Part shown: one piece after another, positions 13,754 to 47,769 of the stretch
How positions within the stretch are numbered: the stretch's first letter is position 1
Layout: each line of letters opens with the position of its first letter
Origin: Stellaceae bacterium
Lineage (GTDB): Bacteria; Pseudomonadota; Alphaproteobacteria; ATCC43930; CGMCC-115725
Assembly (NCBI GenBank): GCA_035632515.1
Contig: DASQGR010000149.1
Coordinates: 1 to 49,343 of the forward strand
Length of the DNA stretch: 49,343 nucleotides
Direction of reading: 5' to 3'
Notes under the pieces: generated by a model
The model's database searches: none
What the model was told of the DNA's origin: nothing
The model's input: the letters and a program-made list of their open reading frames with translations, nothing else
Position numbers and translations under genes: made by a program

Positions 13754-13795
13754 GTCGCCACCTGCCTGGAGCATCGACGGCGCAGGGACGACACG

Positions 13796-27303: not shown

Positions 27304-27334
27304 GGGCGCAACACCCTTGCGGACGGTGCCCGGG

Positions 27335-28144
27335 ATGAGTGCTGCGTTAACCGGCCGGCGGGTCGTCGTTCCCGAGACGCGTGAGATCGAGCTGCTGGCC
27401 GGCATGCTGGAAAAGCACGGTGCCACGGTGGTGCGCTGCCCGCTGGTGGCGATCCGCGACGTCGCCGACCCGGCGCCGGTAATCGGCTGGATCGAGCGTT
27501 TCGTCGCAAGCCCGCCCGCCGATGCGATCCTCTTTACCGGGGAGGGGCTGCAACGCCTGCACCGGCTCGCCGAGGGTGCCGGGCTTGGCGAAAAATTCGT
27601 CGCGGCGCTCGGTCGGGTGCGCACGATCGCCCGCGGCCCCAAGCCGGCGCGGCGGCTGCGCGAGTTGGGGCTGAAGGTTGATTTGCCGGTCGAGCCGGCG
27701 ACCACGGCCGGAATCATCGCTGCCTTGTCGGCGGAAGACCTCTGCGGGCGGCGGATCGCGGTGCAGCTCTATCCCGACGCGCCGCAGGGGCTGCTGGCGT
27801 TCCTCGCCGAGAGGGGGGCCCAGGCCGACCCCGTCGTGCCCTACGCGTATGCTTCGGCCGCCGATGCGGAGCGGGTCGTCGCGATGATCGGCGAGATGGC
27901 GCGCGGCGAGGTCGATCTGGTCGCCTTTACCAGCTCGCCGCAATTGCGCCGCCTGCGCCAGGTGGCCCGGGCCCACGGCTGCGAGGCAGCGCTCGCCGAG
28001 GGCTTCGCCAAGACCAAGCTGGCTGCGGTCGGCCCGGTTGTCGCGGCGGCGATCGAAGCGGAAGGCGGTACGGTCGCAGTTGCGCCGCCGGCCAATTTCC
28101 ACCTGCGCCCGATGGTCAACGCCATTGTCGAGGCGCTGGGGTAG
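27335..28144 (+). CDS. hemD: uroporphyrinogen-III synthase
   Basis: 269 aa from ATG 27335. LTGRRVVVPETREIELLAGMLEKHGATVVRCPLV, DAILFTGEGLQRL, VDLVAFTSSPQL and KLAAVGPVVAAAIEAEG follow the two-lobed HemD pattern. Confidence 0.8.
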   Translation: MSAALTGRRVVVPETREIELLAGMLEKHGATVVRCPLVAIRDVADPAPVIGWIERFVASPPADAILFTGEGLQRLHRLAEGAGLGEKFVAALGRVRTIARGPKPARRLRELGLKVDLPVEPATTAGIIAALSAEDLCGRRIAVQLYPDAPQGLLAFLAERGAQADPVVPYAYASAADAERVVAMIGEMARGEVDLVAFTSSPQLRRLRQVARAHGCEAALAEGFAKTKLAAVGPVVAAAIEAEGGTVAVAPPANFHLRPMVNAIVEALG

Positions 28145-31772: not shown

Positions 31773-34223
31773 TTGGCCGCAGATTTCAAGGTTGTCATCA
31801 TTGGCTCCGGACCGGCCGGCTTGAGCGCCGCCGTTCACGCCGCCAAGGGCGGCGTGTCCCATGTGCTGCTCGAGCGTACCGACCACATCAACAACACCAT
31901 CTTCCGCTATCAAAAGCGCAAGCACGTGATGGCGACCCCCGAGGTCCTGCCGCTGCGCAGCGACCTCGAGTTCGAGGAGGAGTCGCGCGAGGAGTTGATC
32001 GACAGTTGGACCGGGGGTTCCACCGCAGCGGGGATCAACATCCGGTTCAACACCGAGGTGTCGGCGATCAAGGGCGAGAAGGGCAATTTCCAGGTTCAGC
32101 TCGTTGGCGGCGGGGTGATCTCCGCCGAATACGTCGTCCTCGCCATCGGGGTGCAGGGCAATTTCAACCGGTTGAGGGTTCCCGGCGCCGATCTGCCTTT
32201 CGTCCAGTACCAGCTCGACGATCCCGACGAATACCGGGAGGAGAAGATCGCGGTCATCGGGGTCGGCGATGCCGGCATCGAGAACGCGCTGGCGCTGGCG
32301 ACCAACAACGAAGTCTACGTGCTCAACCAGAAGGACGACTTCCCGCGGGCCAAGGCCGGCAATCGCGCGCTGATCATGGCCGCGGTTGCCAAGAACCCGG
32401 ACGAGGCGGGCTCGATCAACCACGTCGTCAACGTCGAGACGCAGGAAATCGTCGCCGGCCCGCCGGGCCAGCCCGGCGAACTGGTGCTGCACCGCGCCGA
32501 CGGCGCAACGGTGCGCGTCGCGTGCAACCGGGTCATCGCGCGCATCGGCGCACAGCCGCCGCGCCGCTTTCTCGAAGATTGCGGCATCGTCTTCACCAGC
32601 GCCGACCGCAACGCCATCCCGGAGGTGTCGGAGACCTACGAATCAGGGGTCAAGGGACTCTATATAATAGGGGCGCTGGCCGGGTACCCGCTGATCAAGC
32701 ATTGCCTCAACCAGGGCTACGAGGTCATCGAGTACATCCTCGGCAACGAGCTCCCGCCGGCCGACGAGCCGCTGATCCAGGCAAAGCTGACCCCCGAGAA
32801 GATACGTGTCCTCGATCCGAGCAAGGACGCGATGACCGGCGCCGAGCTGATCGGCTACATCAGAGCACGGGCGCCGATGTTTTCGGGCCTCAAGCCGATC
32901 CAGATCCGCGAATTCCTGATCCATGCGGAGCTGCATCGGCTGCAGCCCGGCGACGTCGTCTTCCGCCGGGGCGAGTCGACCAATTCGCTGTACACCATCC
33001 TCGACGGTCAGGTCGGCATCCAGATCGACCCGACCAATCCGGCGGAGATGGTTCATCTCGGACCCGGCCAGTTCTTTGGCGAGATGGGGCTGATCTCCGG
33101 CCGCAAGCGCACCGCCACGGTCGTCGCCGCCCAGCCGAGCCTGTTGCTCGAAGTCGACCGCAACACGATGATCCGGCTGGAGCGTTCGGAAGCATCGATC
33201 AAGCAGGCCATCGATTCGGCCGCCGTGATTCGCCAGATCAAGACGTTCCTGGCCCCGCAGGTCGAAGACAGCCTGCTCGCCGAGGTGGTGGCGACCTCCA
33301 AGATCGTCGAATTCAAGCCCGACCAGAAACTGATCGAAGAGGATGCCGAGGACGATGCGGTCTATCTGATTCGCAAGGGCTCGGTGACGGTGTCGATGCG
33401 GGTCGGCGGCAAGGATGTCGTGCTCGCCTATGTCCCGGCCGGCAATTATGTCGGCGAAATGGCGATGATCACCCGCCGCCGCCGTGCCGCAACGGTCACC
33501 GCCGCCAGCGTTACCGAGGCGATCCGCATCGACAGCAGCGCCTTTCGCAAGCTGCTCGACCGCGATCCCGACCTGCGTCGACGGGTCGAGGACAAGCTCG
33601 AGCAGCGGCTGGCCGAGCGCAACCAGATGCAGCAGAACGCCGAGACCGGCGATCTGATCAAATTCCTGGTGCGCGAGGGGCTGGGGGAGGCGACCAACGT
33701 CCTGCTGATCGACGAATCGCTCTGCGTGCGCTGCGACAATTGCGAGAAGGCCTGCGCCGAGACCCATCACGGCGTCAGCCGGCTCAACCGCGAGGCCGGG
33801 CCCACCTTTGCGATGGTGCACGTGCCGACCTCGTGCCGGCATTGCGAAGACCCGCATTGCATGACCGATTGTCCGCCGGACGCGATCCACCGCGCGCCGA
33901 ACGGCGAGGTGTTTATCAACGACCAATGCATCGGCTGCGAGAATTGTAAGAACAACTGTCCCTACGGCGTCATCCAGATGGCGGCGGTGCCGGAAGAAAA
34001 GCCCGGCCTGCTGAGCTGGCTGCTGTTCGGCTGGGGCGCCGGCCCGGGCGAGGACAAATCGCCGGAGGGCATGGCCAAGCGCACCGGCGGCAAGCATGCC
34101 GTCAAATGCGATATGTGCAAGGATCTGGCCGGACCGGCCTGCGTGCGCGCCTGCCCGACCGGCGCGGCGATTCGCGTCGATCCGGCCGGGTTCATCGACG
34201 TCATGCGCCAGGCCCAGGCATGA
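31773..34223 (+). CDS. fusion protein: TrxR-type FAD/NAD(P)H oxidoreductase + two cNMP-binding domains + four-cluster [4Fe-4S] ferredoxin domain
   Basis: 816 aa with a TTG start.
- **aa 4-320:** KVVIIGSGPAGLSAA and KIAVIGVGDAGIE dinucleotide folds, with no redox CxxC.
- **aa ~365-480 and ~495-605:** FGEMGLISGRKRTATV and VGEMAMITRRRRAATV cNMP signatures.
- **aa 651-794:** four Cys motifs, CVRCDNCEKAC, CRHCEDPHCMTDCP, CIGCENCKNNCP and CDMCKDLAGPACVRACP. Confidence 0.85.
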   Translation: MAADFKVVIIGSGPAGLSAAVHAAKGGVSHVLLERTDHINNTIFRYQKRKHVMATPEVLPLRSDLEFEEESREELIDSWTGGSTAAGINIRFNTEVSAIKGEKGNFQVQLVGGGVISAEYVVLAIGVQGNFNRLRVPGADLPFVQYQLDDPDEYREEKIAVIGVGDAGIENALALATNNEVYVLNQKDDFPRAKAGNRALIMAAVAKNPDEAGSINHVVNVETQEIVAGPPGQPGELVLHRADGATVRVACNRVIARIGAQPPRRFLEDCGIVFTSADRNAIPEVSETYESGVKGLYIIGALAGYPLIKHCLNQGYEVIEYILGNELPPADEPLIQAKLTPEKIRVLDPSKDAMTGAELIGYIRARAPMFSGLKPIQIREFLIHAELHRLQPGDVVFRRGESTNSLYTILDGQVGIQIDPTNPAEMVHLGPGQFFGEMGLISGRKRTATVVAAQPSLLLEVDRNTMIRLERSEASIKQAIDSAAVIRQIKTFLAPQVEDSLLAEVVATSKIVEFKPDQKLIEEDAEDDAVYLIRKGSVTVSMRVGGKDVVLAYVPAGNYVGEMAMITRRRRAATVTAASVTEAIRIDSSAFRKLLDRDPDLRRRVEDKLEQRLAERNQMQQNAETGDLIKFLVREGLGEATNVLLIDESLCVRCDNCEKACAETHHGVSRLNREAGPTFAMVHVPTSCRHCEDPHCMTDCPPDAIHRAPNGEVFINDQCIGCENCKNNCPYGVIQMAAVPEEKPGLLSWLLFGWGAGPGEDKSPEGMAKRTGGKHAVKCDMCKDLAGPACVRACPTGAAIRVDPAGFIDVMRQAQA

Positions 34224-35155
34224 GCGTCAGCGAACAGGCGGCCGCTCGGCCCAACGCCGCTTCCGCCGCCGCGCCGCGAACGGACCGGCACACCTCCTTC
34301 CTCGCCTATGAAGGGTATCGCTATCTGAAATGGGCGCTCGCCGCGGTGGTGGCGGCGATCCTGCTTTATTGGCTGGTGCCGCCCTACGGCGCGCGCTACG
34401 GCGGCGGCTGGGCCGGGTACACGCTGGGGACGGTGGGCGCCCTGCTGATCCTGTGGCTGACCTGGTTCGGCTATCGCAAGCGCACCTATGCCTCGAGCCT
34501 GGCCGGCGCGGCGGATGTCGGCGGCAATCCCGTCGAGGATCCGAGCCGGCTGGCGCGGCGACTGTCGGCGCATGTCTACCTCGGCAGCGCGCTGCTGGTC
34601 ATCGCGACGCTGCACACCGCGTTCAATTTTCATTGGAACATCCACACCCTGGCCTATGCACTGATGTGCATCGTCATTTTCAGCGGCATGTTCGGGGTTG
34701 TCGCCTATGCCCGCTATCCGCGGCGGATGACCGAGAATCGCGAAAACCTCACCCTGGGGCAGATGCTCACCCGTGTCGGCAGCATTGACGGCGAGTTGCG
34801 CCGCGGCGCGATGCAGCTCGACGATGCGACGGTCGCCATGATCGAGAATACGGTCGAGACGACCGCGATCGGGGGCTCGATGTGGCGGCAATTGTCGGGG
34901 CGCTATCCCCGGTGCACCACCGCCGCGGCGATCGCCCGCATGGATGCGCGCGCCGAGGCGGTCCCGCCCGAGCTGCAGGATGCCTGGCGCCAGACCCGGC
35001 TGAGGCTGGAGGAAAAGGCCGCCCTTCTGACGCGCCTGCGCCGCGACATCCGCTTCAAGGCGATGATGGAGGTGTGGCTCTTCCTGCATGTTCCGCTGAC
35101 CTTCGCCCTGATTGCCGCGCTTGTCGCCCACATCGTCGCGATCTTTTTCCTTTAG
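34220..35155 (+). CDS. 5-TM membrane protein with two H-x13-H pairs (candidate di-haem b-type transmembrane electron carrier)
   Basis: ATG 34220 overlaps the upstream stop (ATGA). TM3 is HVYLGSALLVIATLH (His codons at 34571 and 34613). TM5 is HVPLTFALIAALVAH (His codons at 35087 and 35129). An Arg-rich loop of about 95 aa separates TM4 and TM5. Confidence 0.7.
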   Translation: MSVSEQAAARPNAASAAAPRTDRHTSFLAYEGYRYLKWALAAVVAAILLYWLVPPYGARYGGGWAGYTLGTVGALLILWLTWFGYRKRTYASSLAGAADVGGNPVEDPSRLARRLSAHVYLGSALLVIATLHTAFNFHWNIHTLAYALMCIVIFSGMFGVVAYARYPRRMTENRENLTLGQMLTRVGSIDGELRRGAMQLDDATVAMIENTVETTAIGGSMWRQLSGRYPRCTTAAAIARMDARAEAVPPELQDAWRQTRLRLEEKAALLTRLRRDIRFKAMMEVWLFLHVPLTFALIAALVAHIVAIFFL

Positions 35156-35225
35156 CCCGATGCGGTCTTGAGATCGGCAATGTCCGCTTCCCACTCCCCG
35201 AACTTTCGCGATTGCGGCCGAGCGC

Positions 35226-36986
35226 ATGGAGGTTGAGTTCACCTTTCTCACCCAGCGCGGCACCGCGGTGATGCGCCGGTCTCAGCGAGCCAGCGCCGAC
35301 AGCGTGCGGCTGGGTCGCGGCACCGACAACGAGGTGCCGCTGGGCGATATTCGCGTCGGGCTGCGGGTGGCGCAGCTCGTGCGGCGTCCCGACGGGATCG
35401 CGATCGAGAAACTCGGGGCGATGCCGCTGCAGGTAAACGGCCAGTCGGTCGACAATGCGATGCTGCATGTCGGCGACGAGATTCGGCTCGGCCCCTACCG
35501 GATCGAGGTCACGGCACCGCCCGAGGGCTGCGACGGCGCGATCCAAATCGAACTGGCGGAGCCGCTGGCCTCGGCGACCGACCCGGTGCGGGCGAGCTCC
35601 CGAATCGGCCTGGAGCACGCCGGCTTCAGCAAGCGCATCGCCTCGTGGACCGGCGTCTTGGTGCTGGCGGTTATCTGCCTGGCGGTGCCGCTCATCGTCT
35701 TTACCAGCGGCGCGTTGACGCCGTGGCACAAGGACACGCCGGCACCGCATGCGACGACCCTGGTCGGGCTGTCGTGGAATACCGGCGAATTCTCGAATTC
35801 GCATCGATTTTTCGCCAAGAATTGCGCGACCTGCCATGAGGGCAAGTTCTCGCGCGTCGCCGACACGGCATGCCTTGCCTGCCACGCGGCGGTCGGCAGC
35901 CATGTCGAGCACGGCGTCAAGCTCGGCTCGGCGGGCGAGCAGCTGGCGGAGTCCCGCTGTATCGATTGCCATACCGAGCACCGCGGCGTGCGCGGCTCGG
36001 TGATCCGCACTGCCGCGCTCTGTCTCGACTGCCATCGCGGGCTCGACAAGACCGCTCCGGAGGCCGGGGTAAAGGCGGTCGGCGGCTATCCGGCCGGCCA
36101 CCCCCAGTTCCGCGCAACGCTTGTCGCCGATGCCGCAAAAAAGCAGAACGTGCGGGTCGAGCTCGGCAGCAAGCCGGCGCCGGCCGATCATCCGGGGATC
36201 AAATTCTCGCACGCGGCCCATCTCGTGCCGGGCGGCTTCCCGAAGCTCCACTACAAGGAGATGGCCTGCGCCGATTGCCATGTCCCGGAGCCGGGCGGCC
36301 AAAGCTTTCAGCCGATCACGTTCAAAGGCCAGTGCCAGAGCTGCCACAACGACAATCTGACATTCGACAGCGTCGCGTTGCCGTGGTCCGGCGCCAAGGT
36401 ACCGCATGGCGATGACAGCGCGGTCGTCGCCGGGGTGGTCAACTTCTATGCCGCGCAGGCAGTGCAGAACGGCGCCGCCGCGCCTGCCGCAACGCCCGCG
36501 GTCGAGCGGCGCGGCGCCGGCATGCCGACTTCGCTGGCAAGCGCGGCGCCGGCCAGCGTCCAGGCGTGGATACGCGACAAATCGCAGGCCGCGCTCCGGG
36601 TGATTTTCGACGAGAAGCGCGGCTGCGCCTATTGCCACTACGGCACCGGGGCGGACGGTGCCATCGACACCGGCAAGGTGATGGCGAGCCTGGCGGCAGA
36701 CAAGGAACCGCTGAAGGTGATCGCCGCGGTCGAGATGCGCACCCGGTTTCTGCCCAACGCGGTCTTCGACCATTCCCAGCACCGCGGCGTGAAGTGCGAG
36801 GAATGCCATGCCAGCCGCCAGTCCCAGGCAAGCGCCGACGTGCTGATCCCGGGCATCGAGACCTGCAAGACTTGCCACGGCGCCGAGGACGTCCACCTGC
36901 AGGTCAAGTCGACCTGCATTACCTGCCACGTCTTTCACCGCAGCGAGTTGGGGTTGATGCACATGACCGCGGAGGCGCCAAAATGA
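35226..36986 (+). CDS. FHA-like domain / single TM / decahaem c-type cytochrome
   Basis: 586 aa. aa ~1-98 are FHA-like (VRLGRGTDNEVPLGD...LQVNGQSV...VGDEIRLGPYRIEV). The TM helix spans aa 139-160 (WTGVLVLAVICLAVPLIVF). There are ten CxxCH motifs, with first Cys at aa 200, 216, 245, 266, 348, 370, 467, 524, 547 and 564. Confidence 0.85.
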   Translation: MEVEFTFLTQRGTAVMRRSQRASADSVRLGRGTDNEVPLGDIRVGLRVAQLVRRPDGIAIEKLGAMPLQVNGQSVDNAMLHVGDEIRLGPYRIEVTAPPEGCDGAIQIELAEPLASATDPVRASSRIGLEHAGFSKRIASWTGVLVLAVICLAVPLIVFTSGALTPWHKDTPAPHATTLVGLSWNTGEFSNSHRFFAKNCATCHEGKFSRVADTACLACHAAVGSHVEHGVKLGSAGEQLAESRCIDCHTEHRGVRGSVIRTAALCLDCHRGLDKTAPEAGVKAVGGYPAGHPQFRATLVADAAKKQNVRVELGSKPAPADHPGIKFSHAAHLVPGGFPKLHYKEMACADCHVPEPGGQSFQPITFKGQCQSCHNDNLTFDSVALPWSGAKVPHGDDSAVVAGVVNFYAAQAVQNGAAAPAATPAVERRGAGMPTSLASAAPASVQAWIRDKSQAALRVIFDEKRGCAYCHYGTGADGAIDTGKVMASLAADKEPLKVIAAVEMRTRFLPNAVFDHSQHRGVKCEECHASRQSQASADVLIPGIETCKTCHGAEDVHLQVKSTCITCHVFHRSELGLMHMTAEAPK

Positions 36987-38968
36987 CCGATTCGCGCCGA
37001 CCGAGATTTCTCCATCATCCGGCGTTTCGTGCCGCCATGGCGGTGCTTTCCGTATGGTGCATGGCGCCGGGCGGCTGTGGCGGCGGCAGCAGCGGCGCCA
37101 ACAACAGCAACCCGAACGCGATCACCCCGGCGGCGCCGGTTGCCGACACCAGCCCCAACCTGACCGAGAGCGACGTCAACACGATCGTGCTGCAGGCGAT
37201 CAACGAGGCGACCGCCCGCGGCCGGCCGGCGACCATTGCCGTGGTCGATCGGGTCGGCAATGTGCTGGCGGTGACCCAGATGGCAGGCGCGCCGGTCTTG
37301 GCGACGGTCACCTCGGGGCGCGGCGTGACGACCGGGCTCGAGACGGTTCAGGTGCCGACGACGCTCGCGGCGCTCGCCAAGGCCTATACCGGCGCCTACC
37401 TGTCGTCGAACGGCAACGCCTTCAGCACCCGCACTGCCAACCAGATCGTCCAAGAGCATTTCAACCCCGGCGTCCGCGGCACGCCGGGCGGGCCGCTGTT
37501 CGGGGTGCAGTTCAGCCAGCTCGCCTGCTCCGATTTCAACACCGCCGCCTCCCCCGTTGCCGGCGGCACCAATGCCGGGCCGCATCGCTCGCCGCTCGGC
37601 TTTTCCGCCGATTCCGGCGGGTTGCCGATCTACAAGAACGGCGTCCTCGCCGGCGGTATCGGGGTGATGACCAAGACCATCTATGGCGCCAACCTCAATA
37701 TTTTTGCCGTGCCGATCGATGACGACGAGGTGGTGGCTATCGCCGGAACGACTGGATACGCGGCGCCGCCGGCGATTACCGCCGACAACATCGCCGTCGG
37801 CGGCCTGACGCTGCAATATATCGACGCCTCCAGTGCCAATCTTGCCGCGCCGGTGTCGGCTGCGGGCACCTTCACGCCGCTGCCGGTGGCCGGGTACTGG
37901 GCCGGGCCCGCCGCCGGTCACACGGCGAATGCCGGGTTGATCTACGGCAGCGCGGACGGCGCTTCGGGAGTGGCTCCGGACGGCGCACTCGGCCCGGTGA
38001 TCTACCCCGGCACCACCCAGACCTCCTACGTCTTCACCGACGGCGCCGGCCATATCCTCTACCAGCCGACCGCAGGGGCGATGCCGGCAGACGGCAATGC
38101 GATCACCGCGGCGGAGGCGAAAGGGCTGACTACCGCGGCGCTCAATGTCGCCTACTCGGCCCGTGCCGCCATCCGGGTGCCGACCAACAGCTTCGCCCAG
38201 GTGACCGTCACCGTGGTCGATCTCGACGGCAATGTGCTGGCCCAGGCGCGCACCCCTGACGCACCGATCTTCGGCGCCGACGTGTCGCGGCAAAAGGCGC
38301 GCTCGGCCGTGTTCTTTTCGCGGCCCGACGCGGCAGCGAAGATCAACGCGATCACCGCTCCGGCGAGCACCGTGACCGGCACTTTTGCCGACTACATCAC
38401 CCGCTCGCAGTTGTTGATCGGCAGCGGCACCTTCTCCAACAGTTTGGCTTGGGCGGCGGTGTCGATCGGCGATGTGGCGCGGCCGTTTTATCCGGACGGC
38501 ATCGACGGCAACCAGCCGGGATCGCTGAGCCTGCCCTTCGACCGATGGAGCGTGTTTTCGACCGGCCTGCAGGTCGACCTGGTGACGAGCGATATCGTTG
38601 CCGGCACGACCGGGGCGCTGGCGCCCGCGACTGGCTGCGGCAACGCCAACGGCCGAGGCTTGCCGCCGACCGCGAGCGGCAAGACCCAGCTCGCCAACGG
38701 ACTGCAGATCTTCTCCGGGTCGGTGCCGATCTACCGCGGCAATGTCCTGGTCGGCGCCGTCGGCGTCTCCGGTGACGGCATCCAGCAGGACAGCCTGATC
38801 TCGTTCCTCGGCCTGGACCGCTTCGCCGCGCAGGACGGCGCAAACCCCATCGCCAACGCGCCCGCGGCAATCCGTGTCGACCTCCTCAAGCCGGCCGGCG
38901 TCAACCTGCGCTACACCAACTGTCCGGCGGCCCCCTTCGTCGACTCCACCGTGCAAAACCCGTGCTGA
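36983..38968 (+). CDS. probable lipoprotein with two GlcG/HbpS-like (DUF336) domains
   Basis: ATG 36983 overlaps the upstream stop (ATGA). The signal is followed by Cys and a Gly/Ser linker (MAPGGCGGGSSG). There are two DUF336-like units, ending in GGLPIYKNGVLAGGIGV and SGSVPIYRGNVLVGAVGVSGDGIQQD. Confidence 0.7.
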   Translation: MTDSRRPRFLHHPAFRAAMAVLSVWCMAPGGCGGGSSGANNSNPNAITPAAPVADTSPNLTESDVNTIVLQAINEATARGRPATIAVVDRVGNVLAVTQMAGAPVLATVTSGRGVTTGLETVQVPTTLAALAKAYTGAYLSSNGNAFSTRTANQIVQEHFNPGVRGTPGGPLFGVQFSQLACSDFNTAASPVAGGTNAGPHRSPLGFSADSGGLPIYKNGVLAGGIGVMTKTIYGANLNIFAVPIDDDEVVAIAGTTGYAAPPAITADNIAVGGLTLQYIDASSANLAAPVSAAGTFTPLPVAGYWAGPAAGHTANAGLIYGSADGASGVAPDGALGPVIYPGTTQTSYVFTDGAGHILYQPTAGAMPADGNAITAAEAKGLTTAALNVAYSARAAIRVPTNSFAQVTVTVVDLDGNVLAQARTPDAPIFGADVSRQKARSAVFFSRPDAAAKINAITAPASTVTGTFADYITRSQLLIGSGTFSNSLAWAAVSIGDVARPFYPDGIDGNQPGSLSLPFDRWSVFSTGLQVDLVTSDIVAGTTGALAPATGCGNANGRGLPPTASGKTQLANGLQIFSGSVPIYRGNVLVGAVGVSGDGIQQDSLISFLGLDRFAAQDGANPIANAPAAIRVDLLKPAGVNLRYTNCPAAPFVDSTVQNPC

Positions 38969-41037
38969 GCGTGCCCCGGCGTATCGACCGATCGCGGCGC
39001 GAGCGGCGACTGGGCCGCAGCGCGCTCGCGTTCATGGCCGCGATGACGGCGCTGACCGGCGCGGCCACGCCGCCCCACGCCTCGGTCGACATCGGCGAGC
39101 TGCGCCGCGACCGGCGCATGGCCGACGAGCTCTACTCGGCGACGACCGGCGACGCCGCCGCCTTCGAGAAAGCGCTAAAGACCCCGGTCCTGCGCAGCGA
39201 GCTCGAACGAACCCTCAACCGTCAGCTCTCCGACGAGACGCTCCAGGCGATGGCCTCGCACGCCCGTGCCGAGGCCGATTACTGGGCCTCCTATCGCCGC
39301 GGCATCGACATGGCGATCGGCGCCGAGGGCCCGTTGATCATGGGCCGCCGGGCGCCCGGCCGGGCCCCGCCGAGCTCGGAGGCCGAGCCCATCGTCAATC
39401 CGGCGGCGTTGCCGCCGCCCGAGCCGTTCGAGCGGGGCGGCTATGTCCCGGTGCAGGATCGCTGGCGCATTCTCGACGCGCTCGGCCGCCGTGAGAACCT
39501 GCTCGATCCCTACAACACCAACACGCTGAAGGCGGATAAGCCGATCTTCGGCGAGGACTGGTTCGTCAACGTCGCGGCGATCGTCGATATTCTCTACGAG
39601 CCGGCGCGGGTGCCGCTGGGGGTCGGCGCGCAATACATCGCGCGGCCGCTCGAAAACAATACATTCGGCCGCTACGGCCGCACCATGCTCAACCAGACCG
39701 ATATTCTCAGCGTCTCGTTGATCAAGGGCGACACCGCGTACAAGCCGCCCGATTTGGAGTTCCGCCTGACCCCGGCGTTCAATTTCAACCATACCGATGT
39801 CGGCGAAATCGGCGTCCTCAACATCGATCCGGCCTACGGGCAAACGCGCAACGACAATTTCATCGGCCTGCAGGAAGGGTTCATCGACTATCACTTCCGC
39901 AACGTCTCCGAGTATTACGATTTCGATTCGGTCCGCGTCGGCATCCAGCCGTTCAACGCCGATTTCCGCGGCTTTTTGTTTCAGGACAACCAGCTCGGCG
40001 TGCGCTTGTTCGGCGATCGCGACGCCAATCGCTGGCAGTACAACCTCGCCTATTTCCGCCGGCTCGAAAAAGACACCAATAGCGGCCTCAACGATATCGG
40101 CCAGGCAGTGCGGCAAGACGGCGTCTTTATCGCCAATTTGTTCCGCCAGGATTTCCCGGTGCACGGGTTCACCTCGCAGATTGCCTTTCTGCGCAACGAC
40201 AACCACGAGGGCGGCGATTTTCACTTCGACAAGAACGGGTTCCTCGTTCGCCCGTCGCAGATCGGCGACAATCGTGGCTACAACTATGACGCCAATTATC
40301 TCGGCTTCAACGGCGACGGCCATTTCGGCCGCGTCAACCTGACGACCTCGGCCTACTATCTGTTCGGCCATCTGAGCCACAATCAGTTTGGCGCGCCGGG
40401 CAACAAGGGCTCTGACATCAGCGCTTTCTTCGTTGCCGCCGAGCCGTCGATCGATTTCGACTGGGCGCGGTTCCGGTTGTCCGGCCTCTACGCCAGCGGC
40501 GCCCGGCATCCGCAAAGCGGTACGGTCGGCGGGTTCGATGCAGTGTTCGAGAACCCGCAATTCGCCGGTGCCGACTCGAGCTTCTGGATCCGCCAGTCGA
40601 TCCCGCTCATCGGCGGCGGCGGCGTGGCGCTCAACACCCCGAACGGCGTGCTCGCCGACCTGCGCTCGTCGAAGGGCGAGGGCCAGTCGAACTTCCTCAA
40701 TCCGGGGATCATGCTCGCCGGTATCGGCGGCGATTTCGACATTCTGCCCGAGCTGCGTTTGTCGACCAATTTCAACTATCTGCGCTTCGACACTACCGCC
40801 CCGCTCGAATTCCTGCGCCACCAGGCGAACATTCCCAACTCGATCGGCTGGGACCTGTCGGCGGCGCTGACCTACCGGCCGCTATTCACCCAGAATATCG
40901 TCTTCCGGCTCTCCGGCGCGGTGTTGCTGCCCGGCGAAGGCACCAAGGCGCTGTTCAATACGCCGGGCGGCCTCGGCCTCTTCGGCAATGACGGTCTGCT
41001 CTACTCGGTTCTGGCCAACGTGATCGTGAACTATTGA
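38962..41037 (+). CDS. large outer-membrane beta-barrel-like protein with a helical N-terminal extension
   Basis: 691 aa. GTG 38962 overlaps the upstream stop by 7 nt. It has a signal-like N-terminus, a helical segment of about 100 aa, then long runs of alternating-hydrophobicity strands rich in Y/F/N/G/D (NRWQYNLAYFRRLEKD, ISAFFVAAEPSIDFDWARFRLSGLYASG). The C-terminus ...VLANVIVNY ends in an aromatic residue. No family was recognised. Confidence 0.6.
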   Translation: MLSVPRRIDRSRRERRLGRSALAFMAAMTALTGAATPPHASVDIGELRRDRRMADELYSATTGDAAAFEKALKTPVLRSELERTLNRQLSDETLQAMASHARAEADYWASYRRGIDMAIGAEGPLIMGRRAPGRAPPSSEAEPIVNPAALPPPEPFERGGYVPVQDRWRILDALGRRENLLDPYNTNTLKADKPIFGEDWFVNVAAIVDILYEPARVPLGVGAQYIARPLENNTFGRYGRTMLNQTDILSVSLIKGDTAYKPPDLEFRLTPAFNFNHTDVGEIGVLNIDPAYGQTRNDNFIGLQEGFIDYHFRNVSEYYDFDSVRVGIQPFNADFRGFLFQDNQLGVRLFGDRDANRWQYNLAYFRRLEKDTNSGLNDIGQAVRQDGVFIANLFRQDFPVHGFTSQIAFLRNDNHEGGDFHFDKNGFLVRPSQIGDNRGYNYDANYLGFNGDGHFGRVNLTTSAYYLFGHLSHNQFGAPGNKGSDISAFFVAAEPSIDFDWARFRLSGLYASGARHPQSGTVGGFDAVFENPQFAGADSSFWIRQSIPLIGGGGVALNTPNGVLADLRSSKGEGQSNFLNPGIMLAGIGGDFDILPELRLSTNFNYLRFDTTAPLEFLRHQANIPNSIGWDLSAALTYRPLFTQNIVFRLSGAVLLPGEGTKALFNTPGGLGLFGNDGLLYSVLANVIVNY

Positions 41038-41041
41038 GACA

Positions 41042-44000
41042 ATGTCGCTGCGCGCTCTGATAGTAGCTGGATTGATGGCATGGGCCGGCGTCTTCGTCGC
41101 GCCGTCGCTTGCCCGCGCCGAGGAATCGCCGGCCGCCCATGAGGAGAGCGCGCCGCCGGCCCCACAAAAGCAGTCGGAGGCTGCGGCGCGGCTCAAGAGC
41201 GCCGGGTGCATGAGCTGCCATACGGCGACCGACTCGGTGACGATGCATACCAGCCCCGGGGTCGTCCTCGGCTGCGCCGATTGCCATGGCGGCAACGCTG
41301 CGGTGTTTGCGCAAGGTGCGGCGCCGGGAACCCCGGAATACCGCAAAGCGCTCGACGCCGCTCATGTCCACCCGCTTCATCCCGAAGCCTGGAATTACCC
41401 GTCGAGCGTCAAGCCGCCGCGCACCTACACGCTGCTCAACAAGGAATCGCCGGCGTTCATCCGCTTTATGAACCCGAGCGACTACCGGGTGGCGCGCGAG
41501 GCCTGCGGCGCCTGCCATCTGAAGGAGATCGCCGCCAACGAGCGCAGCCCGATGGCGACGACCGCGATGTTCTGGGCGGCCGGCGCGTACAATAACGGCA
41601 TCCTGCCGTTCAAGCACTCGATCGTCGGCGAGGCCTATACCCGGGAGGGCGAGCCGGCGACCCTGCTCGATCCCAATCCCCCCAGCCCCGAGGCGAGCCG
41701 CCTGCACGGGATCGAGCCGAAATTCGTGCCGCTGCCGACCTGGGAGGTGTTTCCGACCGGCGACGTCTTCCGCGTCTTTGAGCGCGGCGGCCGCACCATC
41801 AACACGCAATTCCCCGAGATCGGCAATCCGAACTCGACCGGCGAGCTACAGAAGCTCGAGGAGCCGGGGCGGCCCGATCTGAAGCAATCGAACCGCGGCC
41901 CCGCCACCGGGCTGCGGGTGTCGATCCCGATCCTCAACATCACCAAGACCCGGCTCAACGACCCGACCACCTGGTTCCTTGGCACCAACGACAATCCCGG
42001 CGACTATCGCAACTCAGGCTGTGCCGCGTGCCATGTCGTCTACGCCAACGACCGCGACGTGCAGGAGGGCGGGCCCTACGCCGCCTACGGCAATCGCGGC
42101 ACCGGCGCCGGTATCGACCCGACCATCCGCAAGGGCGAGTCGGGGCACCCGATCGTGCATCGCATGACCACGGCGATCCCGACCAGCCAGTGCATGATCT
42201 GCCACATGCATCAGCCGAACCTGTTCCTCAACAGCATGCTCGGCTACACGATGTGGGATTACGAGACCGGCGCGCCGCAGATGTGGCCGAAGCGGCAGAA
42301 ATACCCGACCGACACCGAGATGCGCGCCGCACTTGAGCGCAACCCCGAGGGGGCGGTGGTGCGCGGCAGATGGGCCGACCCGGAATTCTCGGCCAACGTC
42401 AACGAGCTCAACCCCAAGCTCAATGACACCCAGTTCGCCGACTATCACGGCCACGGCTGGAACTTCCGCGCGATCTTCAAGCGCGACCGCAAAGGCAACC
42501 TGCTCGACGACGACAACAACATCATCCCGGCCAGCGACCCGCAAAAATTCAAGAAGGCGGTGCACCTCGATTCGATCCACGTCGATTTTGGGATGCAATG
42601 CGTCGACTGCCATTTCTCGCAGGACAACCACGGCACCGGCCATCTCCACGGCGAGATCCAGGGTGCGATCGAGATCACCTGCGCCGATTGCCACGGCACT
42701 GCGACCAAGCTGCCGGATCTGAAGACCCACGGACCGGCGGCGCCGCCGCGGGGCACCGACATGTCGGCCTTGCGCACTGCCGATGGCCGCGCCCGTTTCG
42801 AATGGCGTGGCGACAAGCTGTTCCAGCGCTCGGCGGTCTATCCGGGGCTCGAGTGGCAGGTCACCCTGGTCAAGGACACGGTCACCCCGGGCAACCCGCA
42901 CTACAATCCGCGGGCGGCCCGCGCCAAGCTGATGTCGAAGGGCAACTCGATGGCCTGGGGGCCGGGGGTGCCGACAAATCAGCTCGCGCACGGCAGCGAC
43001 GAGATGGCGTGCTACACCTGCCATTTGTCGTGGACGACGAGCTGCGCCGGCTGCCACCTGCCGATCGAGGCCAATCAGCACACCGAACGACACCGCTATG
43101 AAGGCGAGACCACCCGCAATTTCGCCACCTACAATCCGCAAGTGGCGCGCGAGGACATGTTCCAGCTTGGCCGCCACAGCACGGTGAAGAACAACATCAT
43201 CGCCCCGATCGCGTCGCGCTCGGCGCTGGTGCTGTCGTCGACCAACATCAACCGCGAGCACATCTATGTGCAGCAGCCGCCGGTGTCGTCGTCCGGGTTC
43301 TCGGCCCAGGCGTTCTCGCCTCACTACCCGCATACCGAGCGGCGCACCGAGACCAAGACCTGCACCGACTGCCACATCTCGGCGCAGAACGACAACAACG
43401 CGATCATGGCCCAGCTGCTGCTGCTCGGGACCAATTTCGTCAATTTTGTCGGGCTCAATTCCTGGGTCGGCGAGGAACACGACATCGAGGCGGTGCGTGT
43501 CACCGAATGGGACGAGCCGCAGGCGGTGATCGGCAGCTACCTGCACCGCTATGCCTACCCGGACTACTACAAGAAGCACCTCGCCGAAGGCCGCAAACTG
43601 GAGGAGGCCCACGGTCATGCCTCCAACGACGCCAAATGTCTGCAGCTGCGCGGCGAATACCTCTTCGTCTCCGAGGGCTCCAACGGGACGCGGGCCTATG
43701 ATGTCGCCAGCATTGCCAACAAGGGCGTTTCCGAGCGCATCATCACCGCGCCCTTCTCGGCCCTCGGCCACGACACCCATATCGCCTCGAAAAACGCGAC
43801 CTGCGTCGTGCTGCCGACCGATCAGCCGATCAACCCGCTGCGCAATGCGGGCAAGAACGAGGCACTCGATTTCAGCCAGGATTACGGCCCGGTGATGCGC
43901 GGGGCGAACGAAGAACAGGTGATGCACCCGATCTACAACTACGCCTACATCACCGATTCCGTCGAAGGGCTGATCCTGACCAATGTCAACACGCTGCAGG

Positions 44001-44821
44001 ACCAGGAGCCGCGCAACAACTTCTTCACCCGGGCGCTGACCTGGAACGAGAACGGCATCCTTAACGGAGCCCGCTACCTGACCATCGCCGGGACCAAGTT
44101 CTACGTCACCGCCGATGCCGGCATCGTCGAGCTCGACATGGACGACCCGCTGCATCCCAAGCTCGTCGCGGTGATCCCCATCCGCGATGCCCGGGCGACA
44201 GTGGTGCAATTCCGCTATCTGTTTGTCGTCGGCGCCAGCGGGCTGGAAGTCGTCGACGTCACCAACCCGGCCCGGCCGGTGGTGGTGCCGGGCGCGCGCG
44301 TGCCGCTCGCCGATGCGCGGCGCATCTTTGTCGCTCGCACCTATGCCTATATTGCCGATGGCCGCGACGGGCTGGCGATCGTCGATGTCGAGCGGCCGGA
44401 CCACCCGTTCCTCAAGATGCAGTACACCGCCGACGGCAAGATCACCGACGCGCGCGATGTGGTCGTCGCCTCGACCAATGCCTCGCTCTTTGCCTATGTC
44501 GCCGACGGGGTGAATGGGCTCAAGGTGATCCAGTTGCTCTCGCCGGTCAGCCAGCCCAATTTCTACGGCTTTTCGCCGGAGCCGAAACCGGAGCTGATCT
44601 CGTGGTACCCGACCGCCTCGCCGGCGCTGTCGTTGTCGCGCGGGCTCGAGCGCGACCGCGCGGTCGACGAGACCGGACACCAGATCGCGGTATTTGGCCG
44701 CATCGGCTCGCGCCCGTTCACCCTCAAGGAAATGCAGCAGCTCTATATGGGCCCTGACGGCAAGCCGTTCACTGTCACCGATCAGGTGCAAAAGCAGGAC
44801 TTCGTGCCGGCGCGGCATTAA
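41042..44821 (+). CDS. secreted decahaem c-type cytochrome with a C-terminal LVIVD-repeat beta-propeller region
   Basis: 1259 aa with Sec signal MSLRALIVAGLMAWAGVFVAPSLARA. Ten widely spaced CxxCH motifs have first Cys at aa 56, 78, 155, 327, 384, 520, 547, 657, 668 and 774. aa ~865-1165 (nt 43634-44536) carry LVIVD-type repeats (YLFVSEGSNGTRAYDV, YAYITDSVEGLILTNV, FYVTADAGIVELDM, YLFVVGASGLEVVDV, YAYIADGRDGLAIVDV, FAYVADGVNGLKVIQL). Confidence 0.85.
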   Translation: MSLRALIVAGLMAWAGVFVAPSLARAEESPAAHEESAPPAPQKQSEAAARLKSAGCMSCHTATDSVTMHTSPGVVLGCADCHGGNAAVFAQGAAPGTPEYRKALDAAHVHPLHPEAWNYPSSVKPPRTYTLLNKESPAFIRFMNPSDYRVAREACGACHLKEIAANERSPMATTAMFWAAGAYNNGILPFKHSIVGEAYTREGEPATLLDPNPPSPEASRLHGIEPKFVPLPTWEVFPTGDVFRVFERGGRTINTQFPEIGNPNSTGELQKLEEPGRPDLKQSNRGPATGLRVSIPILNITKTRLNDPTTWFLGTNDNPGDYRNSGCAACHVVYANDRDVQEGGPYAAYGNRGTGAGIDPTIRKGESGHPIVHRMTTAIPTSQCMICHMHQPNLFLNSMLGYTMWDYETGAPQMWPKRQKYPTDTEMRAALERNPEGAVVRGRWADPEFSANVNELNPKLNDTQFADYHGHGWNFRAIFKRDRKGNLLDDDNNIIPASDPQKFKKAVHLDSIHVDFGMQCVDCHFSQDNHGTGHLHGEIQGAIEITCADCHGTATKLPDLKTHGPAAPPRGTDMSALRTADGRARFEWRGDKLFQRSAVYPGLEWQVTLVKDTVTPGNPHYNPRAARAKLMSKGNSMAWGPGVPTNQLAHGSDEMACYTCHLSWTTSCAGCHLPIEANQHTERHRYEGETTRNFATYNPQVAREDMFQLGRHSTVKNNIIAPIASRSALVLSSTNINREHIYVQQPPVSSSGFSAQAFSPHYPHTERRTETKTCTDCHISAQNDNNAIMAQLLLLGTNFVNFVGLNSWVGEEHDIEAVRVTEWDEPQAVIGSYLHRYAYPDYYKKHLAEGRKLEEAHGHASNDAKCLQLRGEYLFVSEGSNGTRAYDVASIANKGVSERIITAPFSALGHDTHIASKNATCVVLPTDQPINPLRNAGKNEALDFSQDYGPVMRGANEEQVMHPIYNYAYITDSVEGLILTNVNTLQDQEPRNNFFTRALTWNENGILNGARYLTIAGTKFYVTADAGIVELDMDDPLHPKLVAVIPIRDARATVVQFRYLFVVGASGLEVVDVTNPARPVVVPGARVPLADARRIFVARTYAYIADGRDGLAIVDVERPDHPFLKMQYTADGKITDARDVVVASTNASLFAYVADGVNGLKVIQLLSPVSQPNFYGFSPEPKPELISWYPTASPALSLSRGLERDRAVDETGHQIAVFGRIGSRPFTLKEMQQLYMGPDGKPFTVTDQVQKQDFVPARH

Positions 44822-44867: not shown

Positions 44868-45572
44868 ATGGATCGGCGTTTGTTTCTATCCTTGCTGGGT
44901 GCGGCATTGGCGTCGCCGTCGGTGTCACAGGCCCAACCGGCCGCTCCACGATTGCGCCGACTGAAACTGGTCAACGCCCATACCGGCGAGACCTTCAACG
45001 GACCCTATCGCGACGATGGCGGCCCGATCGCTGCGGCGATGGAGGACCTCTCCGCCTTCTTGCGCGACCATCATTCCGGCGAGACGATCGACTACGATGT
45101 CGGGGTCATCGATTTTCTCGCCGGGGTGATGGAGGCGGTCGGCGCCGGCCAGGCGACGATCCTTTCGGCCTATCGCACCCGGGCGACCAACCAGATGCTG
45201 GCGCGCACCACGTTCGGCGTCGCCGACAACAGCCAGCACATCTACGGCCGCGCGCTCGACATCTACCTGCCGGTGCGGCTCGATACCGCAATGGAGGTGG
45301 CGCGGGCGATGCAGCGCGGCGGTGTCGGCTGGTATCCGGATTCGCACTTCATGCACCTCGACAGCGGGCCGGTGCGCAACTGGACCCTGGGCGGCGAAGG
45401 GTTCGAGCGTTTGTTGCTCGAGTTGCGGCGGATCATCGCCAAGGGCGACCTCTCGGTGACGCCCAAGGGTGAGTTGCGGGTCGGCGACGAGCAGCGGCCG
45501 CTATCGGCAAAAGAGCGGTTGGCCCTGCACCGCCTCCTCAGCAAGGCCGAGGCGGCTGTCGCCTCTCACTGA
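44868..45572 (+). CDS. DUF882 / YcbK(MepK)-like peptidase M15 family protein with a Tat signal
   Basis: MDRRLFLSLLGAALASPSVSQA carries a twin-arginine motif. SQHIYGRALDIY (HxxGxAxD) and SHFMHLD are metal-ligand motifs typical of DUF882. Confidence 0.8.
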   Translation: MDRRLFLSLLGAALASPSVSQAQPAAPRLRRLKLVNAHTGETFNGPYRDDGGPIAAAMEDLSAFLRDHHSGETIDYDVGVIDFLAGVMEAVGAGQATILSAYRTRATNQMLARTTFGVADNSQHIYGRALDIYLPVRLDTAMEVARAMQRGGVGWYPDSHFMHLDSGPVRNWTLGGEGFERLLLELRRIIAKGDLSVTPKGELRVGDEQRPLSAKERLALHRLLSKAEAAVASH

Positions 45573-46054
45573 GGCTTCGTCTCGGGGGCGGCGGTGCGGG
45601 AGAGCTTTAGCGTCACTTCGCCCGCGGGCGATGCCAGCACCACCTGGTCCTGGGCGACGATTTTGACCGTCCAGCCGTCGAGCGTGTCGCCCTCGCCAAT
45701 TTCCATGCGCCGCGTGCCTTCCGCGACAAAGGCATGCCGCTTCGCGCCGGTGCCGACGATCCCGAGCAGGCGATAGCGGCTGTCGATCGACGGACCGGCG
45801 GGCGCGACGGAAACCCCGGGCGGCGCCTGTCGCGACGGAGCAAAAAGCGGGCGCTCGACGATCGCGGCAAGGCTGGCGAGGGGCGGCAGCGCCGCGAGCG
45901 CCGGCGGCGGTTTCGTCGTCTCCTGGGTGGCGGCGTGCCGGTTCGACGGGGTCGGCGGCACCAGCCAGGGCCAGACGGCGAGGGCGGCGAATAGCGCCGT
46001 TGCCAGGCCGAGCAGCGAAGCGGGCCGCAGTGCCGGCAATTTCGCCGCGATCAC
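45566..46054 (-). CDS. gspN: type II secretion system protein at the GspN position (PilP/GspC-HR-like C-terminal domain)
   Basis: GTG 46054 overlaps the gspM stop (GTGA). It has an N-terminal TM (LLGLATALFAALAVWPWLV) and a C-terminal region YRLLGIVGTGAKRHAFVAEG...GDTLDGWTVKIVAQDQVVLAS. The assignment rests mainly on gene order. Confidence 0.55.
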   Translation of the reverse strand: MIAAKLPALRPASLLGLATALFAALAVWPWLVPPTPSNRHAATQETTKPPPALAALPPLASLAAIVERPLFAPSRQAPPGVSVAPAGPSIDSRYRLLGIVGTGAKRHAFVAEGTRRMEIGEGDTLDGWTVKIVAQDQVVLASPAGEVTLKLSRTAAPETKPQ

Positions 46055-46602
46055 GGGGCCGGCTCCGTCTTGAAGCCGGCGATGTCGAGCTGGAAATCGA
46101 GCCGCGGCGCGGCTGCGCCCGGTGACGGTGCGGGCGACTGAACCTGCAGGTTGTCGGCGTAGAGCACCGGGCGCGCCGATTCGATTGCGTAGATCAGGCT
46201 GCGCAGGCCGGGCATGTCGCCGCTGGCGCGGATGCGGACGCCGATCCGGGTCGCACCGGGCAGCGCCTCGCTGCGCAGCATCTGCAATCCCTGCACCTGG
46301 ATACGGGCGGCGGTGGCGGCGCCTTTGACCGTTTCTTGCAGCATGGCCGCGGCCTGCGAATCGGGCATTTCGGGATAAAGCAAGCTCCGACCGGCCGCCG
46401 ACGGCAAGGTGGCGGGTGTGGGGCCGTCGGCGAGCGCCCGATAGCGGGCCAGTACCGCAGCCTTGGCGGCCAGCCGATCGTCGGCGGCATCGATCAGCCC
46501 GCGATAGGCGCCGACCGGCCCGAACCAGAACGCGACAATCAGCGCCGCCAGGATCGCGAGCGCCGCGGCTCGCCTCGCCGTGGCCCGGTCGGTCAGGCTC
46601 AC
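46051..46602 (-). CDS. gspM: type II secretion system protein M
   Basis: 183 aa with a GTG start. It has a single N-terminal TM followed by a periplasmic domain. Its position between gspL and gspN, with 4-nt overlaps on both sides, supports the call. Confidence 0.7.
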   Translation of the reverse strand: MSLTDRATARRAAALAILAALIVAFWFGPVGAYRGLIDAADDRLAAKAAVLARYRALADGPTPATLPSAAGRSLLYPEMPDSQAAAMLQETVKGAATAARIQVQGLQMLRSEALPGATRIGVRIRASGDMPGLRSLIYAIESARPVLYADNLQVQSPAPSPGAAAPRLDFQLDIAGFKTEPAP

Positions 46603-47675: not shown

Positions 47676-47769
47676 GGGCGGTCGACGGCCTCGCAGCCGG
47701 AACGAAACGACCTTAAAGGAATTTCCGCCGATGCAAAATCGGTTCCGTGGCGCCGTTGCTTGCCGTTGC

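Follow-up and report, generated by a model that had tools for sequence, protein, structure and literature searches.

Paired histidines in a five-helix membrane protein of a Stellaceae bacterium suggest a transmembrane di-haem b relay between a flavo-iron-sulfur protein and multihaem cytochromes c

The locus and its membrane protein

The stretch of DNA considered here, henceforth the window, comprises positions 1 to 49,343 of the contig DASQGR010000149.1 of a Stellaceae bacterium (Alphaproteobacteria; NCBI GenBank assembly GCA_035632515.1). Six genes of the plus strand (31773-44821) form in it a tightly packed operon, the second of which codes for a protein of 311 residues with five predicted transmembrane (TM) helices, lodged between the gene of a flavo-iron-sulfur (flavo-FeS) protein and that of a decahaem cytochrome c. 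A first-pass annotation, made from the DNA letters alone, had remarked on the spacing of the histidines in two of these helices and proposed that the protein relays electrons across the membrane through two haems b. The present analysis confirms the observation and, at the level of sequence, supports the interpretation. The features of the gene on which the argument turns are the following (sides of the membrane are those predicted below).

34220-35155, plus strand: gene of the 311-residue protein, a putative five-TM di-haem b protein whose conserved core is made of TM2-TM5
34427-34471, plus strand: TM2 pair G70/G84, spaced i/i+14, small residues proposed to pack on haem
34571-34615, plus strand: TM3 histidine pair, with H118 (codon 34571-34573) on the cytoplasmic side and H132 (codon 34613-34615) on the periplasmic side
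34643-34687, plus strand: TM4 pair H142/G156, spaced i/i+14, with H142 (codon 34643-34645) at the periplasmic end of the helix
35087-35131, plus strand: TM5 histidine pair, with H290 (codon 35087-35089) on the cytoplasmic side and H304 (codon 35129-35131) on the periplasmic side

The gene begins within the end of its upstream neighbour. Its ATG at 34220 overlaps the TGA (34221-34223) of the preceding 816-residue gene by four base pairs (ATGA), an overlap already pointed out in the first-pass annotation, and the junction reads ...GGCATGAGC... An MSVS(E/D) N-terminus is common to the protein and its homologues and, because these begin in the same way, 34220 is taken to be the true start. An in-frame ATG farther upstream, at 34106, was considered and rejected, since homologues begin at the methionine encoded at 34220.

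Histidines are found at positions 24, 118, 132, 138, 142, 290 and 304. H118 and H132 lie inside HVYLGSALLVIATLH, in TM3, while H290 and H304 lie inside HVPLTFALIAALVAH, in TM5, and the two members of each pair are exactly 14 positions apart, as had been claimed. When the sequence of 311 residues was shuffled 200,000 times, at least two H-x13-H pairs turned up by chance with p = 0.0056. A chance origin of the pattern was rejected on this ground and because the residues involved are invariant in the family; of the two arguments, conservation is the stronger.

Five hydrophobic segments, at about residues 34-52, 64-85, 117-136, 140-165 and 281-311, are matched by the five helices of an AlphaFold model built from an alignment of 115 sequences, with a predicted local distance difference test (pLDDT) score of 91.9 and a predicted template modelling (pTM) score of 0.85. 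Lysine and arginine are very unevenly shared between the two sides. The parts proposed to be cytoplasmic hold 3 in the N-terminus (with 2 more at the start of TM1), 6 in the TM2-TM3 loop and 21 in the region between TM4 and TM5, against 1, 0 and 0 in those proposed to be periplasmic, namely the other loops and the C-terminus. By the positive-inside rule this distribution places the N-terminus inside and the C-terminus outside, so that TM3 and TM5 are parallel, both running from the inside to the outside. The first-pass annotation had arrived at the same arrangement, with which the natural joining of a relative's N-terminus to a flavo-FeS protein, described below, agrees. It had also seen an Arg-rich cytoplasmic loop of 95 residues between TM4 and TM5. 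The cytoplasmic location stands, in view of the 21 lysines and arginines, whereas the length and the word loop have to be amended: the insert measures about 115 residues and is predicted to be a folded helical domain (pLDDT about 96-98).

Conservation across relatives

A word-indexed search found 3643 relatives of the protein, and when 1.84 billion representatives were searched exhaustively with a profile, 1639 clusters (at 50% identity) came out with E ≤ 1e-3, 265 of them with E ≤ 1e-30. When one genome per species was scanned, 371 species-level genomes carried the family, spread over Alpha-, Beta- and Gammaproteobacteria. The family is therefore not rare, yet it is named 'hypothetical protein' throughout, this being the only name that its members bear in RefSeq and IMG.

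Conservation was assessed in an alignment (A2) of 115 full-length sequences, in which the query is joined by six close relatives at 61-68% identity and by 108 others at 30-48%. H118 and H132 are each present in 115 of the 115 sequences, H290 and H304 each in 113, so that the four histidines on which the first-pass annotation rested its proposal are borne out in homologues. A fifth, which it had missed, is H142 at the periplasmic end of TM4, found in 112 of 115 sequences (98%), with a conserved N140 alongside. Glycines are conserved too: G70, G122 and G156 in every sequence and G84 in 110. Each of the helices TM2 to TM5 thus holds one conserved pair of residues spaced i/i+14, G70/G84, H118/H132, H142/G156 and H290/H304, respectively. 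The family thus combines two conserved histidine pairs, within the i/i+13-14 spacing, on two parallel TM helices with conserved small residues (G70, G84, G156 and G122) on flanking helices at the depths where haems would lie.

The pattern is reminiscent of a classical one. In mitochondrial cytochrome b, whose di-haem core is made of four helices (A-D), glycine pairs occupy two helices and histidine pairs the other two, and a spacing of 14 residues along a helix, about 21 Å, corresponds to the usual distance between haems. Conservation in the family follows a helical periodicity in TM2 (p = 0.012), TM4 (p = 0.0016) and TM5 (p = 0.0044), while TM3 is conserved on all its sides; outside this core, in TM1 and in the cytoplasmic insert, conservation is much lower.

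Family assignment

No match above threshold was obtained for the 311-residue protein in Pfam or NCBIfam, the latter yielding nothing at all, and the protein therefore belongs to no curated family. The first-pass annotation had recognised no named family either, while likening the protein to di-haem proteins of the ferric reductase, MsrQ and cytochrome b561 types; the profile searches went in its favour, in that the matches, all of them sub-threshold, were to di-haem b families. With PF01292 (Ni_hydr_CYTB, the prokaryotic cytochromes b561), the match of the protein itself covers TM5, residues 279-310 being aligned with positions 133-164 of the profile. Among the members of A2, 78 of 115 match the same profile at E ≤ 0.1, the best at E = 3.8e-8, and of ten relatives looked at individually eight score between 14 and 29.6 bits while two give no match. 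These matches are collinear, residues 59-136 facing profile positions 46-119 and residues 279-310 facing 133-164. Fewer members come near two other families: 17 of 115 match DUF4405 (PF14358) below threshold (best E = 4.1e-5) and 8 of 115 match Ferric_reduct (PF01794) marginally (best E = 0.001), the 311-residue query matching neither. Beyond these three families, the matches of A2 members are scattered noise. Taken at the level of profiles, this would seat the protein at the margin of the superfamily of di-haem cytochromes b, with a ligand distribution of its own, two histidines on TM3 and two on TM5.

The operon and its variants

The genes that surround the putative relay in the window are these.

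31773-34223, plus strand: flavo-FeS protein, 816 residues, with a Pyr_redox_3/2 module for flavin adenine dinucleotide (FAD) and NAD(P)H, two cyclic nucleotide monophosphate (cNMP)-binding domains and a C-terminal four-cluster ferredoxin domain (Pfam, NCBIfam)
35226-36986, plus strand: FHA-decahaem cytochrome c, 586 residues, with a cytoplasmic FHA domain, a single TM helix at residues 136-167 and, on the periplasmic side, a domain that bears 10 CXXCH motifs for haem c (Pfam, motif counts)
36983-38968, plus strand: HbpS-like lipoprotein-type protein of about 660 residues, exported, with three stretches similar to HbpS (PF03928); ATGA overlap between its start and the stop of the cytochrome c gene
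38962-41037, plus strand: protein of 691 residues with a signal-peptide-like N-terminus and the C-terminal residues ...VNY, a putative outer-membrane beta-barrel
41042-44821, plus strand: decahaem-LVIVD protein, 1259 residues, with a signal peptide, 10 CXXCH motifs and a C-terminal LVIVD-repeat propeller

The upstream partner has the make-up of an electron donor. Its sequence displays GxGxxG motifs at residues 11 and 163, and 16 cysteines arranged in four CxxC...CxxxC motifs at residues 651, 688, 719 and 779, within a C-terminus that matches the models of HydN, DmsB, NrfC, ArrB, DsrO and the beta subunit of formate dehydrogenase (FDH-beta). Ferredoxin subunits of these types feed membrane anchors in known respiratory complexes. 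On the downstream side, the FHA-decahaem protein joins a reader of phosphothreonine to a decahaem cytochrome, an unusual pairing. The 691-residue protein matches nothing in Pfam or NCBIfam; a place among the porins of the Mtr/MtoB type (MtrB/PioB-like) was considered for it and rejected, as it does not match TIGR03509, and it is regarded as a putative barrel of a new kind in the outer membrane, part of a porin-cytochrome complex. The decahaem-LVIVD protein that follows is a putative terminal cytochrome of the cell surface.

Weak type II secretion or pilus-assembly-like genes (T2SSC, PilN/PilM, T2SSK; 45566-48708, minus strand) converge on the operon, and might export the surface cytochrome. 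Upstream are found, without being assigned to the module, a gene of a HemD-like uroporphyrinogen-III synthase some 3.6 kb away (27332-28144, plus strand) and, farther off, a gene of cytochrome bd subunit I (12233-13774, minus strand). Neighbouring genes of a lyase, a histidine phosphatase and a lactonase were rejected as parts of the module, being syntenic in close Stellaceae relatives only.

How constant these neighbours are was followed in 80 related loci, the counts below being given over those where the position could be tested. The FHA-decahaem gene is the most constant, lying directly downstream of the homologue of the 311-residue protein in 72 of 73 loci; this partnership, closer still than the one with the upstream gene, had escaped the first-pass annotation. 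The flavo-FeS gene is directly upstream in 58 of 69, and downstream of the cluster in three further loci. An HbpS-like gene is present in 56 of 62 loci, a gene of the 691-residue type in 52 of 57, and proteins of similar size with 10 CXXCH motifs occupy the position of the decahaem-LVIVD protein in 9 of 14 related loci checked.

One variant comes from Magnetococcus sp. YQC-9 (JAMOBI010000025.1; L086:9001-12333, protein P0160), where a single open reading frame of 1110 residues fuses a flavo-FeS protein (44% identity to that of the window over residues 1-777) to the N-terminus of the five-TM protein, the gene of an FHA-multihaem cytochrome coming next. The fusion places the N-terminus of the relay in the cytoplasm, independently of the count of charges, and argues for physical contact between the two proteins. 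Elsewhere the trio of flavo-FeS protein, five-TM protein and FHA-cytochrome travels in other company. Sphingobium herbicidovorans MH has it on plasmid pMSHV, a replicon of 959 kb (NZ_CP020539.1; L087:6227-11402), where RefSeq calls its products cyclic nucleotide-binding domain-containing protein, hypothetical protein (WP_037469326.1) and cytochrome c3 family protein; a multihaem cytochrome of 1329 residues is encoded nearby. In two marine Rhodospirillales, one of them Pacificispira (L080:12866-17980, minus strand; the other is L064), with homologues at 43-44% identity to the 311-residue protein, the trio is joined by a pentahaem gene (641 residues) and a tetrahaem gene (485 residues in L080, about 455 in L064), and L080 codes in addition for a protein of 533 residues without family match. 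There these genes replace the HbpS-like, 691-residue and LVIVD genes, which makes of these loci a version of the operon of the ptd type, discussed at the end of this text. Finally, the family is carried by metagenome-assembled genomes (MAGs) of Ferrovibrio and Sulfuriflexus.

A di-haem relay as the favoured explanation

The reading that we favour, and hold to be probable though well short of assured, is that the 311-residue protein is a b-type di-haem transmembrane relay in an electron-export pathway that possibly bypasses the quinone pool. NAD(P)H would reduce the FAD of the flavo-FeS protein, the four [4Fe-4S] clusters of which would take the electron to the face of the membrane. The ferredoxin domain would dock there on the relay, probably at a conserved RKR motif and at the inserted helical domain. 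A first haem, near the cytoplasmic face, would be ligated by H118 of TM3 and H290 of TM5 and would accept the electron, passing it to a second one near the periplasmic face, about 21 Å further out, held by H132 of TM3 and H304 of TM5, while TM2 and TM4 would pack on the edges of the haems via their small residues, G70/G84 and G156. From the outer haem the electron would reach the first haem c of the membrane-anchored decahaem cytochrome. The HbpS-like lipoprotein, the putative barrel in the outer membrane and the secreted decahaem-LVIVD protein would then presumably take it on to an extracellular acceptor. The net reaction would thus most likely lead from NAD(P)H to an extracellular acceptor, bypassing the quinone pool. 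An outward flow is favoured because the membrane potential assists the export of electrons and because NAD(P)H is a strong reductant. The cNMP-binding domains on one side and the FHA domain on the other suggest that the flow is regulated, and could act as its gates.

Several facts weigh against this explanation. The match of the 311-residue protein to PF01292 amounts to 16.4 bits (E = 0.0078), well under the gathering cut-off of 30.1 bits. No cytochrome b was found among the sequences of the PDB when these were searched with profiles of alignment A2 and of another alignment, A1. With the E. coli K-12 proteins FdnI, HyaC, CybB, YodB, YceJ and MsrQ, hmmsearch and hhalign gave insignificant results: the family profile scored at most 2.2 bits, with FdnI, setting the haem ligands H155/H169 of the latter on H290/H304, and the hhalign probability stayed below 1%, with a reference alignment of five sequences that was probably too shallow. 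When Foldseek compared with the PDB the two AlphaFold models of the protein, model 1 (28 sequences, pLDDT 71) and model 2 (that of 115 sequences, pLDDT 91.9), the best match had E = 0.26, to helical bundles of the TorS type, followed by generic bundles and ABC transporters. This lack of a solved di-haem protein belongs with the adverse points, yet we do not count it against a haem protein, because small TM bundles are a weak point of Foldseek and because the insert of 115 residues dominates the model.

The neighbourhood and the core of the protein itself add to this list. In eleven of 69 loci, for the most part from Beta- and Gammaproteobacteria, no flavo-FeS gene lies upstream (L079, L053, L060, L061, L062, L066, L068, L071, L073, L074 and L076), and a cytoplasmic donor is therefore either not universal or encoded elsewhere. 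In Betaproteobacteria bacterium GR16-43 (L079:3960-9970), divergent genes for the maturation of cytochromes c (ccmA, ccmC, ccmF and ccmH/cycH-like) stand in its place. The fusion is known from one MAG only, where it might be an assembly error. H142, last, has no role in a simple model of two haems; it could be hydrogen-bonded to a propionate group on the outer haem, touch the partner cytochrome c or belong to a quinol site.

This last role would suit another explanation, in which the protein, as a cytochrome b that oxidises quinol (or reduces quinone), connects the decahaem cytochrome c with the quinone pool, in the way of CbcL, CymA or ImcH, the flavo-FeS protein being accessory or regulatory. 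FdnI, HyaC and CybB of PF01292, the only relatives of known function that the profiles bring up, are quinone-reactive. Besides, the cytochrome c partner is kept in 72 of 73 loci when the flavo-FeS gene is missing upstream in 11 of 69, and the quinol site could be made up of the conserved N140 and H142, where TM4 meets the periplasm; a link to quinones has likewise been the object of speculation for a similar module in Ferrigenium (bioRxiv 10.64898/2026.01.22.701106). Such an account is at odds with the translational coupling to the flavo-FeS gene and with the natural fusion of the two proteins. It also leaves aside a cytoplasmic four-cluster ferredoxin domain that needs an acceptor in the membrane, while a quinol site on the periplasmic side would have no need of a haem near the cytoplasm; moreover, no motif of a quinone site was identified in the 311-residue protein. 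We see a quinone-reactive protein, all in all, as unlikely.

Electrons might also move inwards through the same di-haem architecture, from an extracellular donor such as Fe(II) to cytochromes and on to the FeS-flavoprotein, which would reduce NAD(P)+, or else a disulfide. In Ferrigenium straubiae, an oxidiser of Fe(II), an apparently equivalent module of three genes is expressed under all tested conditions, and it is discussed as a candidate link between Fe(II) oxidases and the inner membrane (bioRxiv 10.64898/2026.01.22.701106); the presence of the family in MAGs of Ferrovibrio and Sulfuriflexus goes in the same direction. To be sure, electrons taking this path would have to move against the membrane potential, as established bioenergetics has it, and Fe(II) is far too weak a reductant for NAD(P)+ unless energy is supplied, for which nothing in the module suggests a coupling. 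Most carriers, furthermore, are Alphaproteobacteria akin to soil or marine heterotrophs, and an inward relay appears to us quite improbable.

The least credible account, to which we lend hardly any weight, is that of a non-redox scaffold tethering the FHA-cytochrome and the FeS protein, or of histidines binding a metal ion instead of haem: it would agree with the lack of any InterPro, Pfam or NCBIfam assignment above threshold, with the lack of a structural match to solved cytochromes (Foldseek) and with stray matches of a few members to CopD-type models, but the fringe matches of the profiles fall mainly on di-haem b families, the protein has for neighbours two electron carriers whose ends lie on opposite sides of the membrane, and a scaffold is hard to reconcile with the data because four invariant histidines sit at i/i+14 on parallel helices, with pairs of glycines at the same depths.

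Significance of the proposed quinone-independent entry point

To our knowledge, electrons reach the periplasm from the quinone pool in the known Gram-negative pathways of extracellular electron transfer (Mtr, Pcc, Cbc/ImcH). A relay of the type favoured above would, if real, provide a different entry point, one that consumes the proton-motive force, where a di-haem b protein is fed directly by an NAD(P)H-dependent flavo-FeS protein on the principle of the eukaryotic NOX/FRE enzymes. In the literature we found no description of the variant of the operon met in the window, with its HbpS-like, 691-residue and decahaem-LVIVD genes, and nothing on multihaem cytochromes with an FHA domain in extracellular electron transfer, on systems joining LVIVD repeats, multihaem proteins, a porin and the inner membrane, or on quinone-independent extracellular electron transfer with a cytochrome b. 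As far as sequences can tell, then, the type of device, a transmembrane di-haem b relay, would be a known one, and the novelty would reside in an uncurated family with an unusual donor and an unusual acceptor. Cultured carriers are at hand, in Sphingobium herbicidovorans MH, which is convenient for genetic work, and Oceanibacterium hippocampi CECT 7691, and Tistlia consotensis is listed as a further one, along with further phyla, in the preprint describing the ptd operon (bioRxiv 10.1101/2023.11.21.568154).

Comparison with known systems

Two preprints describe operons of related architecture. In the ptdABCDEFG operon, a putative penta/tetra/deca-haem porin-cytochrome operon the function of which 'remains completely unknown', PtdF, termed 'ferric reductase-like', is encoded between PtdE, with cNMP-binding and two [4Fe-4S] features, and the decahaem PtdG (bioRxiv 10.1101/2023.11.21.568154). 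As in the window, the gene of a TM protein thus lies between that of a cNMP-binding/4Fe-4S protein and that of a decahaem one, and on this architecture, not on sequence, PtdF would be the counterpart of the 311-residue protein. The pentahaem PtdA, the porin PtdB and the tetrahaem PtdD are absent from the window, which has HbpS-like, 691-residue and decahaem-LVIVD genes instead. In Ferrigenium straubiae, a [4Fe-4S] protein, a five-TM protein and a single-TM FHA-nonahaem cytochrome (NHC) are found together; according to the authors, the five-TM protein matches no redox motif, and they propose for it the role of a scaffold (bioRxiv 10.64898/2026.01.22.701106). The make-up of three genes is the same as in the window, the likeness being again one of architecture, with nine haems there and ten here.

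Neither preprint analyses the histidines of the five-TM protein or puts the protein to the test. The four histidines and the pairs of glycines therefore offer a candidate redox role, in the form of a hypothesis testable by mutagenesis, for the five-TM protein of an operon that both present as one of unknown function, the second having come upon no redox role for this protein. A broader proposal, which we put forward tentatively and with doubt somewhat outweighing belief, is that the family is the missing inner-membrane link of a widespread and hitherto unrecognised route that takes electrons from NAD(P)H in the cytoplasm directly, without the quinone pool, to multihaem cytochromes in the periplasm and outside the cell, a bacterial 'split NOX' feeding a porin-cytochrome conduit. 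Its switches would be cyclic nucleotides, acting via the cNMP-binding domains of the donor, and Ser/Thr phosphorylation, acting via the acceptor's FHA domain, and the same module would be used by the ptd operon of marine bacteria of oxygen-deficient zones and by the FHA-multihaem cluster of Ferrigenium.

Membrane complexes with a similar logic are well known. In the Tmc, Hmc and Dsr complexes a cytochrome b in the membrane comes between an FeS protein of the cytoplasm and a multihaem cytochrome c of the periplasm, and CbcL of Geobacter unites a b-type with a multihaem c domain. The logic is alike, but these systems use cytochromes b of the NarI/HdrE type and FeS proteins of the HdrD type, and no homology with the 311-residue protein was detected. 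The uet cluster of Tenderiales, considered on account of LVIVD, is unrelated.

DUF4405, MsrQ-like and PepSY-like (FoxB) proteins have recently been grouped in one structural class, that of membrane-spanning cytochromes with four central histidines and two haems b, passing electrons to extracytosolic partners, and the binding of haem b has been shown for a DUF4405 protein (PMC11334425). Members of this class work with flavinylated (ApbE) partners or in the reduction of siderophores, whereas the present family would have a flavo-FeS donor and multihaem acceptors of the c type; FoxB (7ABW) was not among the top Foldseek matches of the model of the 311-residue protein.

With the NOX/FRE, STEAP and MsrQ proteins (PF01794), the principle would be shared: a cytoplasmic donor with NAD(P)H and flavin, a membrane protein with its N-terminus inside, and the release of electrons at the outer face. 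Two stacked haems b are held in NOX/FRE enzymes by histidine pairs of TM3 and TM5. Such pairs, on TM3 and TM5 of a protein with its N-terminus inside, are also those of the 311-residue protein, the resemblance being one of pattern only. PF01794 proteins have six TM helices, against five here with the C-terminus outside. The dehydrogenase is here a separate protein, rarely fused and then N-terminal, and four FeS clusters would be interposed between flavin and haem; in the place of O2, Fe(III) or MsrP, the acceptor would be a multihaem cytochrome.

Another tie, weak as it is, leads to PF01292. FdnI, HyaC and CybB have an H-x13-H pair on their last helix, as the 311-residue protein has on TM5, and the profile similarity is collinear while remaining below the cut-off. 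Proteins of this family have four TM helices with, in FdnI, two of the haem-binding histidines on TM4 and a single one on each of TM1 and TM2. This pattern is not that of the 311-residue protein, which has no conserved histidine on TM1 or TM2 and carries its pairs on TM3 and TM5, besides having an extra TM helix and a cytoplasmic insert of 115 residues. FdnI has in FdnH a four-cluster ferredoxin as its partner. Here the corresponding ferredoxin is cytoplasmic, and the acceptor would be a cytochrome c, not a quinone. By analogy, the junction proposed for the Stellaceae operon would resemble the passage from FeS protein to cytochrome b in formate dehydrogenase N (Fdn-N) turned inside out or, in principle, a NOX/FRE enzyme divided among several polypeptides.

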